Position numbers and translations under genes: made by a program. A stretch of DNA of 10,635 bases, taken from UHGV virus genome UHGV-1749175. One strand, given 5' to 3'. The stretch's first letter is position 1, and each line of letters starts with the position of its first letter. Positions 6,833 to 10,635 of this stretch are shown here, one piece after another. The notes below the pieces were generated by a model. The model was not told the DNA's origin. It was given only the letters and a program-made list of their open reading frames with translations, and ran no database searches. This DNA is from a virus.

Positions 6833-7156
6833 ATGCTTCTGACAATGGAAGAGATTAAAGCCCAACTCCGGCTGGATGAGGATTTCGATACTGATGACCG
6901 CCATCTGCAACTGCTGGCATGTGCGGCACAAAAGCGGACGGAAACGTATCTGAACCGTAAGCTCTATGCACCGGATGAAACCATTCCGGACAGCGATCCG
7001 GACGGGCTGCACCTGCCGGATGATATTCGTCTGGGGATGCTGATGCTTATCAGCCATTTTTACGAAAACCGCTCGTCGGTTACGGAAGTGGAGAAACTCG
7101 ACATGCCGCAGAGTTTTGGCTGGCTTGTCGGCCCGTACAGGTACTTTCCGCAATGA
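6833..7156 (+). CDS. Head-tail connector protein (gp6-like)
   Basis: 107 aa. N-terminal EEIKAQLRLDEDFDTDD ... LLACAAQKRTETYLNRKL ... ISHFYENR matches the recognisable pattern of gp6-like head-tail connector proteins. AGAGGG SD before ATG 6833. Stop overlaps the next start (ATGA at 7153-7156). Confidence 0.75.
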   Translation: MLLTMEEIKAQLRLDEDFDTDDRHLQLLACAAQKRTETYLNRKLYAPDETIPDSDPDGLHLPDDIRLGMLMLISHFYENRSSVTEVEKLDMPQSFGWLVGPYRYFPQ

Positions 7157-7563
7157 AAATTCGTCAGGCGCAGACCAGCGCAACCTACATTCTGCCGGAC
7201 CCCGGCGAACTGAATAAACGCGTCCTGATCCGCCAGCGGGTGGATATGCCCGCGGATAACTTTGGCGTGGAGCCTCAATACCCGGTTGCGTTCCGGGCAT
7301 GGGCGAAGGTTATCCAGACCAGTGCCACCACCTGGCAGGAAACCGCGCAGACCGGGGACGCCATCACCCATTACATCACCATTCGCTACCGCCGGGGGAT
7401 CACCGCTGATTATGAGGTGGTCTGTGATGACAGTGTGTACCGGGTGAAACGTCAGCGCGATCTGAACGGGGCGCGGCGCTTTCTGCTGCTGGAGTGTACG
7501 GAACTGGGCGAATTTACGCAGAGTCACGGAGGCAGCAATGGCGACTCCCTTTTTTCACGTTGA
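7153..7563 (+). CDS. Head-tail adaptor / head closure protein (SPP1 gp16-like)
   Basis: 136 aa. Motifs THYITIRYRRGIT and RFLLLECTE resemble the conserved core of phage head-tail joining proteins. ATG coupled to the upstream stop. Confidence 0.75.
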   Translation: MKIRQAQTSATYILPDPGELNKRVLIRQRVDMPADNFGVEPQYPVAFRAWAKVIQTSATTWQETAQTGDAITHYITIRYRRGITADYEVVCDDSVYRVKRQRDLNGARRFLLLECTELGEFTQSHGGSNGDSLFSR

Positions 7564-8044
7564 TGTTCAGCAGCCCGCGGAGATGCGCTTTAACCGCGCC
7601 CGTGTCCGGCGGGCGTTTGTCACGATTGGGCAGCGTCATATGCGTGATGCCCGTCGGCTGGTGATGCGCCGTGCGCGGTCGGTACCGGGTGAAAACCCCG
7701 GTTATCAGACCGGACGCCTGGCTCGTTCGATTGGTTACATGGTGCCGAGAGCCAGTAAAAAGCGAGCCGGTTTTATGACACGCATTGCCCCTAACCAGCG
7801 CAACGGGAAGGGGAACCGGATGATCTCTGGTGACTTCTATCCGGCGTTTCTGTTTTTTGGTGTCCGGGGAGGAGCAAAACGTCGTCGTAGTCATCATCGT
7901 GGTGCATCCGGTGGCAGCGGCTGGCGGCTGGCTCCACGTAATAACTTTATGGTGGAAACGCTTGAAAAGAACCGCAGCTGGACACGCTATTTTCTGGCGC
8001 GGGAATTGCGTAAATCACTGAAGCCGGAGCGACGACACAGATGA
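7538..8044 (+). CDS. HK97 gp10-family neck/tail-completion protein
   Basis: GGAGG at 7527-7531 is 6 nt before ATG 7538. Translation contains TGRLARSIGY and YPAFLFFGVRGG, resembling the GxLRRSI and YAxFVEFGT signatures of the HK97 gp10 family. Overlaps the adaptor 3' end by 26 nt. Stop TGA 8042-8044 overlaps the next ATG (8041). Confidence 0.7.
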   Translation: MATPFFHVDVQQPAEMRFNRARVRRAFVTIGQRHMRDARRLVMRRARSVPGENPGYQTGRLARSIGYMVPRASKKRAGFMTRIAPNQRNGKGNRMISGDFYPAFLFFGVRGGAKRRRSHHRGASGGSGWRLAPRNNFMVETLEKNRSWTRYFLARELRKSLKPERRHR

Positions 8045-8588
8045 AACTGACGCCTGTTATTGCTGCGCTGCGTGCCCGCTGCCCGTATTTTGAAAACCGG
8101 GTGGCAGGCGCGGCACAGTTCAAAAATCTGCCGGAGGTCGGAAAGCTGAGACTCCCGGCGGCGTATGTGATTCTCCGGGAGAAAACAAAAGCCAGACCGA
8201 CTACTGGCAGGAGCTGAAAGAGGGTTTCTCCGTGGTTGTCATACTGAGTAACGGGCGTGATGAGCGCGGTCAGTTTGCCTCGTATGATGTGGTGGACGAT
8301 GTCCGGCAGATGCTCTTTAAGGCTCTGCTGGGCTGGAACCCGGAAGCGTGCGGTAACCCGATTACCTATGACGGCGGCACGCTGCTGGATCTGAATCGTC
8401 ATGAGCTGATTTATCAGTTCGATTTTTCGGTCATCAGCGAGCTGACCGAAGACGATACCCGCCAGCAGGATGACCTGAACAGTCTGGATGAACTGCGAAC
8501 GCTGGCGATTGATGTTGATTATCTCGATCCCGGTAACGGGCCTGACGGCGATATCGAACATCACACCGAAATAACCCTTCCTTCCTGA
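8041..8588 (+). pseudogene. Neck/tail morphogenesis gene apparently interrupted by a -1 frame break near 8185-8195 (alternative reading: two separate small genes, 8041..8217 and 8232..8588)
   Basis: ATG 8041 (coupled to the gp10-like stop) opens a protein-like frame (MKLTPVIAALRARCPYFENRVAGAAQFKNLPEVGKLRLPAAYVILREKTKA...) that ends at TGA 8215-8217 after a junk-like tail (RPTTGRS). A second frame, open from 8094, is junk-like upstream but protein-like from about 8193 (QTDYWQELKEGFSVVVILSNGRDERGQFASYDVVDDVRQMLFKALLGW...) through 8588. The switch point coincides with the A-rich tract GAGAAAACAAAAGCC (8179-8193). Together the two parts would give one protein of roughly 180 aa. Confidence 0.45.
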
Positions 8589-8596
8589 GAATCTTC

Positions 8597-8764
8597 ATGT
8601 TTGTGAAACCTGTTAAAGGGCGGTCAGTGCCTGACCCTGCCCGCGGCGACCTTTTGCCCGCCGAAGGGCGAAATGTTGATGAGAACAACTACTGGCTGCG
8701 CCGTGAAGCAGCGGGTGATATCCGGCGCGTGAATGAAAAGGTGAATACCGATGACGAGCTTTAA
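8597..8764 (+). CDS. Small conserved-looking protein upstream of the tail sheath (55 aa; resembles the small DUF-type proteins that precede Mu-like sheath genes)
   Basis: Not in the supplied ORF track. ATG 8597 to TAA 8762-8764 translates to MFVKPVKGRSVPDPARGDLLPAEGRNVDENNYWLRREAAGDIRRVNEKVNTDDEL. Its 3' end overlaps the sheath start (8751) and contains the sheath SD (AAGGTG). No strong SD of its own. Confidence 0.5.
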   Translation: MFVKPVKGRSVPDPARGDLLPAEGRNVDENNYWLRREAAGDIRRVNEKVNTDDEL

Positions 8765-10244
8765 CACCATTCCGTCAAATACGCTGGTTCCGATTTTTTA
8801 TGCGGAAATGGATAACTCGGCGGCGAATACTGCACAGGACAGCGGAGCATCGCTGCTGATTGGTCATGCCAATAACGGTGCAGAGATTGTTGCCAACAGT
8901 CTGGTGCTGATGCCATCGGCAGACTATGCACGCCAGATTTGTGGTGCGGGAAGTCAGCTGGCGCGTATGGTCGAGGCTTATCGCCAGACCGACCCGTTTG
9001 GTGAGCTGTATGTGATTGCCGTTCCGGAAGCCACAGGCGCGGCGGCAACGGTTACGCTGACGGTGACCGGGGAAGCAACCGAAAGCGGCACGGTGAATGT
9101 CTATGTGGGACGTACCCGCGTGCAGGCTCCGGTGACCAACGGCGATAACGTCACGACGATTGCCAGCAGTATCAAAGATGCCATCAATGCCGTTCCGGCC
9201 CTGCCGTTTACGGCTTCATCTTCGGCAGGCGTGGTCACACTGACCGCGCGTCATAAGGGGCTTTGCGGGAATGAAATTCCTGTCAGCCTCAATTACTACG
9301 GCTTCGGTGGGGGCGAAGTGCTGCCAGCGGGCGTACAGATTGCCGTGGCGACGGGTACCGCCGGAACGGGTGCTCCGGTTCTCACCGGCGCGGTGGCTGC
9401 AATGGCGGATGAGCCGTTTGATTATATCGGCCTGCCGTTCAACGACACGGCCTCCGTTAACACGCTGGTGACCGAGATGAACGATACCAGCGGTCGCTGG
9501 AGCTATGCGCGTCAGCTGTATGGTCATGTGTATACGGCAAAGATCGGCACGCTGTCAGAACTGGTGACCGCAGGTGACCAGTTTAACCAGCAGCACATTA
9601 CCCTGGCGGGATACGAAAAAGAGACCCAGACGCCTGCCGACGAGCTGGCGGCAAGCCGTACCGCCCGCGCAGCGGTGTTTATTCGCAACGATCCGGCACG
9701 TCCCACGCAGACCGGTGAGCTGGTGGGTATGCTGCCTGCGCCGAAGGGGAAACGGTTCACGATGACCGAACAACAGACCCTGCTGTCTCATGGCGTGGCA
9801 ACGGCGTATGTCGAAAGCGGGGTGCTGCGCATTCAGCGTGATGTCACCACGTACAGGAAAAACGCTTACGGTGTTGCGGATAACAGCTACCTCGACAGCG
9901 AGACGCTGCATACCAGCGCGTATGTGCTGCGCAAACTGAAATCCGTCATTACCAGTAAGTACGGGCGTCACAAGCTTGCCAGCGACGGTACCCGCTTTGG
10001 TCCCGGTCAGGCGATTGTCACACCGGCGGTGATCAAAGGGGAACTGCTGGCAACCTACCGTCAGCTTGAGCGTGCGGGGATCGTGGAAAACTACGAACTG
10101 TTTAAGCAGTACCTGGTTGTGGAGCGTGATGCCAGCGATCCGAACCGCCTGAACACGCTGTTCCCGCCTGACTATGTTAACCAGTTGCGTGTCTTTGCCG
10201 TGGTTAACCAGTTCCGTCTTCAGTATTCAGAGGAGTCTGCATAA
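8751..10244 (+). CDS. Contractile tail sheath protein (Mu gpL-like)
   Basis: 497 aa. N-terminus MTSFNTIPSNTLVPIFYAEMDNSAANTA is typical of Mu-like sheath proteins; size matches (about 495 aa). AAGGTG SD 7-8 nt before ATG 8751. Stop TAA 10242-10244 overlaps the tube gene ATG. Confidence 0.85.
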   Translation: MTSFNTIPSNTLVPIFYAEMDNSAANTAQDSGASLLIGHANNGAEIVANSLVLMPSADYARQICGAGSQLARMVEAYRQTDPFGELYVIAVPEATGAAATVTLTVTGEATESGTVNVYVGRTRVQAPVTNGDNVTTIASSIKDAINAVPALPFTASSSAGVVTLTARHKGLCGNEIPVSLNYYGFGGGEVLPAGVQIAVATGTAGTGAPVLTGAVAAMADEPFDYIGLPFNDTASVNTLVTEMNDTSGRWSYARQLYGHVYTAKIGTLSELVTAGDQFNQQHITLAGYEKETQTPADELAASRTARAAVFIRNDPARPTQTGELVGMLPAPKGKRFTMTEQQTLLSHGVATAYVESGVLRIQRDVTTYRKNAYGVADNSYLDSETLHTSAYVLRKLKSVITSKYGRHKLASDGTRFGPGQAIVTPAVIKGELLATYRQLERAGIVENYELFKQYLVVERDASDPNRLNTLFPPDYVNQLRVFAVVNQFRLQYSEESA

Positions 10245-10615
10245 TGGCCCGTATCGGGGGAACCTGTTATTTCAAAATTGACGGTCAACAGCTATCGCTG
10301 ACCGGCGGCATTGAGGTGCCCATGAACAGGACGGTCAATGATGACATCATCGGCCTGGACGGTTCAGTGGACCGCAAGGAAACTCACCGTGCGCCTTATG
10401 TCAAAGGGACTTTCAAGGTGCCGAAGAATTTTCCGGTGAACAAAATCACCTCGTCTGATGAGATGACCATCACTGCCGAGCTGGCGAACGGTCAGGTCTA
10501 TGTATTGTCGTCTGCCTGGCTGCACGGCGAAGCGAACCATAATGCCGAAGAAGGCACGTGTAGATTCAATCTGTCAATGCAACACCCCTTTCAATTATCT
10601 CTTTCGGTGTTTTGA
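10244..10615 (+). CDS. Tail tube protein (Mu gpM-like)
   Basis: ATG 10244 overlaps the sheath stop. N-terminus MARIGGTCYFKIDGQQLSLTGG and its position directly after the sheath gene fit a myovirus tube protein. The last ~18 codons lie in a noticeably AT-richer stretch, so the C-terminus/stop position is uncertain. Confidence 0.7.
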   Translation: MARIGGTCYFKIDGQQLSLTGGIEVPMNRTVNDDIIGLDGSVDRKETHRAPYVKGTFKVPKNFPVNKITSSDEMTITAELANGQVYVLSSAWLHGEANHNAEEGTCRFNLSMQHPFQLSLSVF

Positions 10616-10635
10616 ACTTCAGTGTCTTTCTCGGT

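Follow-up and report, generated by a model that had tools for sequence, protein, structure and literature searches.

The locus considered here lies in a stretch of viral DNA of 10,635 nucleotides (UHGV virus genome UHGV-1749175, analysed in full and referred to below as the window), and the question that it raises is whether two reading frames found between positions 8041 and 8588 are two small genes, one gene read in two frames or one gene that has been broken. In the 0 frame, translation runs from ATG 8041 to a TGA stop at 8215-8217 and gives a product of 58 aa. The -1 frame, which opens at 8094, has its stop at 8586-8588 and overlaps the 0 frame over 8094-8217. A mechanical ORF list renders the same region as an ORF of 58 aa at 8041-8217 followed by one of 118 aa at 8232-8588, the latter with a GTG start that sits 7 nt past the sequence AAGAGGG (8218-8224). 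This layout had been described in a first-pass annotation made from the sequence alone and was reproduced in our translations. The parts of the locus to which the text refers are as follows.

8041..8217 (+): 5' fragment of the tail terminator gene, from translation, the Pfam profile PF23840 and alignment to SfV orf9, SKA5 and 689R6
8169..8588 (+): remainder of the tail terminator coding sequence in the shifted frame (native residues ~48-186), from translation, PF23840 and alignment
8167..8170 (+): junction of a 13-bp deletion, from a four-way alignment and pairwise blastn against KE51
8179..8193 (+): A-rich tract GAGAAAACAAAAGCC, invariant at all 15 positions between the window and three intact orthologs; not the lesion

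An antisense ORF of 205 aa with a GTG start (7947-8564, minus strand) overlaps the entire 8041-8588 finding. It lies wholly inside conserved sense-strand coding sequence, and there is no sign of its being a gene. A scan of 7400-9000 for promoters and terminators gave nothing exceeding the shuffle expectation.

A single tail terminator gene

The two ORFs fall on consecutive stretches of the same Pfam profile, PF23840 (Phage_tail_terminator, 150 positions). The N-terminal fragment aligns with profile positions 8-56 (E 1.5e-8, 35.1 bits) and the C-terminal fragment with positions 76-142 (E 6.2e-10, 39.6 bits), both scoring higher than the gathering cut-off of 27 bits. The placing of both ORFs on one profile argues for a single split gene rather than a chance reading. 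A search of a large protein collection returned 253 homologs, the best 120 of which are mostly 185-187 aa in length; among them are clusters of 1,887 and 984 members, and the genera represented are Escherichia, Klebsiella, Enterobacter, Citrobacter, Serratia, Salmonella, Edwardsiella, Pantoea and others; the source records for these 120 use the name 'phage tail terminator protein'. V44, P45 and D48 are invariant across 42 homologs (62-97% identity). A search of NCBIfam with the gene gave no match, and a search of the PDB by sequence gave no meaningful match.

A working member of the tail terminator family would be expected to assemble into a hexameric ring, capping tube and sheath and binding the head completion proteins. 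The gene has the tail terminator fold, with sequence identities of 8-13% to the Mu tail terminator (PDB 9khy), lambda gpU (3fz2), T5 p142 (8bcp) and the pyocin R2 collar protein PA0615 (6u5f). While the Mu tail terminator has the same fold, the window copy is broken, the gene being split into ORFs of 58 aa and 118 aa where an uninterrupted ORF of ~186 aa would be expected of the family. As judged from its sequence, 8041-8588 is a single tail terminator gene, orthologous to SfV orf9 and ST64B sb11, and it is a pseudogene of the PF23840 family rather than a working member.

In PHROGs the full-length family, phrog_209, is labelled 'portal protein', and the N-terminal half (phrog_10113) and C-terminal half (phrog_5122) are kept as separate families. 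The 'portal protein' label was rejected as a mis-annotation, since the Pfam and fold matches, the names in RefSeq and a length of 186 aa all contradict it. The existence of separate families for the two halves indicates that split copies of the gene recur among deposited phage genomes. A different arrangement is seen in proteins of 246-247 aa (P0030, P0031, P0034 and P0035) in which PF23840 is combined with PF10948. These are presumably terminators fused to the downstream Mup38-like gene via stop loss or a frameshift in the 8-nt gap between the two.

The 13-bp deletion

Orthologs of the gene in SfV (orf9, NP_599041.1), in the Shigella phages SfI, SfII and SfIV and in the Escherichia phages SKA5 and vB_EcoM-689R6 occupy the same place, between Neck1 and DUF2635/sheath, and are intact, the orthologous CDS of SfV, SKA5 and 689R6 each forming one uninterrupted reading frame (561 nt, 186 aa), whereas the window gene lacks 13 nt and is frameshifted. 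In a four-way alignment of the window with SfV, SKA5 and 689R6 the missing sequence, TGGTACCGGGTGA, is absent between 8167 and 8168. Since TG precedes and also ends the missing segment, any position of the junction within 8167-8170 is equally good; the placement of the gap is thus ambiguous by 2 nt, up to 8169/8170, with TG/TG microhomology flanking both ends. Beyond this gap, the only one in the alignment, the window gene is ~98% identical to those of the three phages and shows no other damage. An identical 13-nt gap was found by blastn against KE51, the best E. coli match (97.7% over 10.6 kb). Megablast of 7500-9000 returned 12 phage records at 94.6-97.2% DNA identity over this 1.5-kb neighbourhood, including SKA5, vB_EcoM-720R4, vB_EcoM-689R6, SfV, SfII, SfI, SfIV and VIT_AJPSC, and in the full-length matches 1501 window bases are set against 1514-1517 record bases.

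The deletion takes out V44-P45-G46-D47 and one further nucleotide and shifts the frame after V43. The 58-aa product consists of MKLTPVIAALRARCPYFENRVAGAAQFKNLPEVGKLRLPAAYV, which is native (codons 1-43, M1-V43), followed by ILREKTKARPTTGRS, the 15 out-of-frame codons between V43 and the TGA stop. Native protein sequence picks up in the -1 frame at 8169 (DSPGENKSQTDYWQ...), from which point that frame reads DSPGENKSQTDYWQELKEGFSVVVILSNGRDERGQF..., and the 118-aa ORF from GTG 8232 corresponds to native V69-S186. Native residues 44-68 are encoded by neither the 58-aa nor the 118-aa product.

The first-pass annotation had proposed an inactivating frameshift in one structural gene, caused by a single-base indel in the A-rich tract. 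One gene is indeed involved and it is frameshifted. The position given for the break, near 8193, has to be revised, as the native sequence resumes at 8169 and the 0-frame residues ILREKTKA, which had been read as protein-like up to about 8193, already lie beyond the shift of frame. The tract GAGAAAACAAAAGCC is the same in all four sequences, and the lesion is therefore the 13-bp deletion, which lies 10-25 nt upstream of the tract, rather than a homopolymer slip. It was the comparison with relatives, which that annotation had itself proposed, that located the gap in the window against intact single ORFs in SfV, SKA5 and 689R6. On these alignments the deletion almost certainly explains the frame break. 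It follows that a frame break judged by eye can land ~10-25 nt off, on an innocent homopolymer-like tract, and that resequencing of the A-tract, as had been suggested, would miss the actual lesion.

The late module and an IS30 end in the tail tube gene

The source element is an SfV-like myovirus with E. coli or Shigella as its host. Its late module is of the standard SfV/Mu-like kind and comprises an HNH endonuclease, TerS, TerL, portal, S78 protease, major capsid protein, a gp6-like connector, a head completion protein, Neck1, the broken gene, DUF2635, sheath and tube. Neck1, terminator, DUF2635, sheath and tube thus follow one another in the order seen for a tail terminator gene, with the stop of the Neck1 gene overlapping ATG 8041. 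The neighbours of the broken gene are the following.

7538..8044 (+): tail completion protein / Neck1, 168 aa, full length; phrog_879 (E 1.2e-94), 167/168 residues identical to KE51
8597..8764 (+): DUF2635 / Mup38-like protein, 55 aa; Pfam PF10948 (E 5e-17)
8751..10244 (+): tail sheath, 497 aa, intact; PF04984, PF17482 and PF17481, 490 residues identical to the 498-aa KE51 sheath
10244..10558 (+): tail tube, native codons 1-105 of 118, truncated at an IS30 junction; Pfam PF10618 and colinearity with KE51 and ST64B
10559..10635: IS30 end (TGTAGATTCAAT...), the terminal 77 nt of a copy; the contig stops within the element

Upstream of the tube gene, the 13 remaining ORFs match their KE51 counterparts in length or differ by 1-3 codons, and have no internal stops. 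Two small differences were observed among them. At window position 1556, in the 3' end of the TerS gene (1073-1567), the window is without 8 bp (TGAAAATT) that are present in KE51; TerS is 164 aa in the window and 161 aa in KE51, and its stop overlaps the TerL ATG at 1564. The TerS and TerL genes of ST64B overlap likewise (sb1 16-510, sb2 507-), and given this match the window variant looks like a normal allelic form. At window position 8757, in the DUF2635/sheath overlap, there is a 3-bp indel relative to KE51 and SfV that makes DUF2635 (55 aa against 56 aa) and the sheath (497 aa against 498 aa) one residue shorter each. As vB_EcoM-689R6 also has the short, 168-nt DUF2635 gene, this indel is an in-frame natural variant.

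The tube gene is in a different state. The IS30 terminus TGTAGATTCAAT, an end sequence read in L016, starts at 10559, straight after tube codon 105, and alignments of the window to KE51 and ST64B both end at 10557-10565. Over 10560-10635 the window shows 100% identity to the IS30 ends of at least 3,428 E. coli genomes, and an IS30 terminal inverted-repeat end here adjoins non-IS DNA. The position of the terminus directly after codon 105 means that the 123-aa ORF at 10244-10615 is a tube::IS30 read-through and not an intact tube gene, and the earlier statement that every other gene in the operon looked intact fails for this ORF, which runs into IS30 past 10558. The arrangement resembles the insertional inactivation of prophage genes by IS30 in that a 77-nt IS30-identical end adjoins a truncated tail tube gene. 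It differs in that the contig carries one IS30 junction only, the target duplication and the far side lying beyond the contig end. A length of 77 nt of IS30 at the contig end would be the remnant expected of a k = 77 de Bruijn assembly at a repeat. A 40-mer across the tube/IS30 junction was absent from 5,426 complete E. coli genomes.

Provenance of the deletion

The window is the entire ENA contig ERZ508010 NODE_2561_length_10635_cov_2.703163, a metaSPAdes-style node from a metagenome rather than a completed prophage sequence. Its coverage is low, at 2.70, which means that few reads support any single position. Its left end (1-20) falls in the lysis cassette and has no repeat, consistent with a coverage drop-out. 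Flanking bacterial DNA is absent from the window and prophage status is deduced solely from the IS30 end. This provenance (2.7x metagenome coverage, with an IS at the end) limits any claim of a defective prophage.

The deletion junction was looked for in 5,426 complete E. coli genomes and in 50,697 phage records, with a 40-nt query built so that each of its 28-mer seed words crosses the junction, and was found in none of them. A 60-nt query with the junction at its centre gave 30 listed matches in E. coli genomes, all of 73 nt in 2 pieces and thus intact alleles; this query is non-discriminating, the search joining both flanking pieces over the 13-bp gap. A scan for the exact junction, using a degenerate pattern that matches the window and leaves the GAC-type allele outside, found no match in GTDB representative genomes, IMG/VR or JGI metagenomes. 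The 58-aa product is recorded on only 2 ENA contigs, possibly from one assembly, and none of the other contigs with an identical 118-aa ORF has the 13-bp deletion. By these searches the deletion thus appears to be a private allele.

Those other contigs present a variety of interruptions of their own. In one (L006) the gene is broken by a 1-bp loss (GGG to GG), in another (L007) by a 4-bp loss in the A-tract GAGAAAAC, and in two (L010 and L013) by a change of AAA to AAAA or AA in CTGAAAGAG, all at positions equivalent to window 8177-8219. L007 has many broken genes including a fragmented sheath gene, which suggests sequencing errors. N runs from scaffolding are found in L008, L009, L011 and L014, and a recombination boundary in L005. 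Short-run indels of the type that the first-pass annotation had expected do therefore occur in this gene, in contigs other than the window.

The chief rival to a genuine deletion is that the 13 bp are missing only through a library, sequencing or assembly artefact at ~2.7x k-mer coverage, or are missing from a minority of molecules, the real gene being intact. This would fit the coverage of 2.70 in the contig name, the failure to find the junction in any other collection searched and the ~98% identity of the otherwise undamaged remainder of the gene to intact alleles. Against it, a deletion of 13 bp is not a typical Illumina (short-read) error, and a de Bruijn assembler cannot create a deletion without a read that carries it unless there is a repeat of k-mer length at the site. 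The deletion site appears to have no such repeat, and the assembler would therefore have needed a read carrying the deletion. That the operon is damaged a second time, by the IS30 end in the tube gene, also fits a genuinely decaying element. An artefact is on this evidence a rather unlikely explanation, and the deletion is likely to be a real genomic lesion. Of the choice that had been offered between a mutation and a sequencing error, the caution over error is still justified at a coverage of 2.7, although an error in the A-tract is not what the alignments show.

Two genes or a recoded one

That the locus might hold a pair of real small genes, encoding 58 aa and 118 aa, the second starting at GTG 8232, had been put forward as an alternative on account of the Shine-Dalgarno-like AAGAGGG 7 nt ahead of the GTG, and the distinct N-half and C-half families of PHROGs (phrog_10113 and phrog_5122) could be taken in the same sense. 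However, a single PF23840 domain extends across both ORFs, and the homologs are single proteins of ~186 aa in many genera, not the consistent pairs of proteins that two genes would entail. AAGAGGG is ordinary coding sequence (K64-E65-G66) that is found in intact genes too, and it therefore gives no evidence of an evolved start. Residues 44-68, with their invariant positions, are coded by neither ORF, and the other assemblies in which the same 118-aa ORF is called show unrelated lesions or N runs. On these comparisons the existence of two genes is highly improbable and appears effectively refuted.

Least credible of all is a programmed -1 ribosomal frameshift, or some other form of recoding, joining the two frames, for although the frames overlap over 8094-8217 with the A-rich tract inside the overlap, the 0-frame codons of the tract are GAG AAA ACA AAA GCC (8179-8193) and no X_XXY_YYZ heptamer occurs within 8094-8217, intact relatives with the same A-tract use one frame and do not conserve the two-frame layout, and even a perfect shift would give a protein without the invariant V44 and P45. 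The first-pass annotation had already thought such recoding unlikely from the lack of a slippery heptamer, and the single-frame homologs appear effectively to refute it.

Comparison with ST64B

ST64B of Salmonella Typhimurium is described as defective through a frameshift in sb21 in the part of PMC3853940 that cites Figueroa-Bossi and Bossi (2004), and a passage of PMC7067206 terms the frameshifted gene a 'tail assembly gene'. In the ST64B record sb21 (15240-15785) is annotated as a Mu gp47-like baseplate protein. The ortholog of the 8041-8588 gene is sb11 (6982-7542), which is intact and encodes 186 aa. ST64B is, like the element studied here, an SfV-like prophage with a frameshifted tail assembly gene, and the two are colinear for 9.5 kb, with a DNA identity of 83% overall and about 70% within the terminator gene. 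The two differ in the gene affected, the equivalent of sb21 falling past the window end, and in that the ST64B frameshift reverts, according to the first-pass annotation, whereas a simple slip could not restore a loss of 13 bp. The suggestion that the window might be the ST64B locus was ruled out by the intact sb11, the position of the lesion in sb21 and the 83% DNA identity. The parallel behind it was right in kind, an SfV-like prophage with a tail assembly frameshift, but concerned a different gene and a different phage.

Consequences for the element

The 13 bp would have been lost between two TG dinucleotides at 8167-8170, by replication slippage or by microhomology-mediated end joining, the 2-bp microhomology being weak evidence for either. 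Translation would then leave the native frame after V43 and end 15 codons on, at 8215-8217. At best two products might be made: an N-terminal stub of 58 aa and, if translation restarts at GTG 8232, a C-terminal fragment covering V69-S186. In an AlphaFold model of the intact ortholog, residues 40-74 form three consecutive beta-strands, and residues 44-68 hold two core beta-strands together with several invariant positions. Without residues 44-68 no functional terminator ring would be expected to cap the tube and sheath and offer a surface for head joining. Tails would then be neither completed nor joined to heads and infectious particles would not be made, an outcome to which IS30 in the tube gene alone would equally lead. 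The tail terminator is known to be essential in other phages, lambda gpU being an example, and by analogy we infer that terminator function would be lost.

On the evidence as a whole, the terminator gene of an SfV-like element is frameshifted by a 13-bp deletion that is probably real, and the same operon has the IS30 lesion. With the late genes otherwise pristine, this pair of independent lesions points to a prophage that was probably inactivated not long ago and is now decaying, in a host of the gut-type Enterobacterales. There is a very slim chance that the deletion is real and fixed and that a tail-less prophage has been kept by its host for a useful intact head and packaging module. If this were true, DNA packaging or service to a co-resident helper or satellite would be conceivable uses of the head module, and the fragments of 58 aa and 118 aa would be roleless. 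The head genes are intact, but recent inactivation accounts for this equally well.

Recent inactivation of the prophage calls for no new mechanism, and nothing in the locus is novel: it is a case of ordinary prophage decay, with a pseudogenised structural gene and an IS insertion, or else of an assembly artefact. The importance of the finding is small outside annotation. There it means that the two ORFs at 8041-8588 are one tail terminator pseudogene and that 10244-10615 is a truncated tube gene fused to IS30, and that neither the terminator fragments nor the tube::IS30 ORF should be called novel small proteins.
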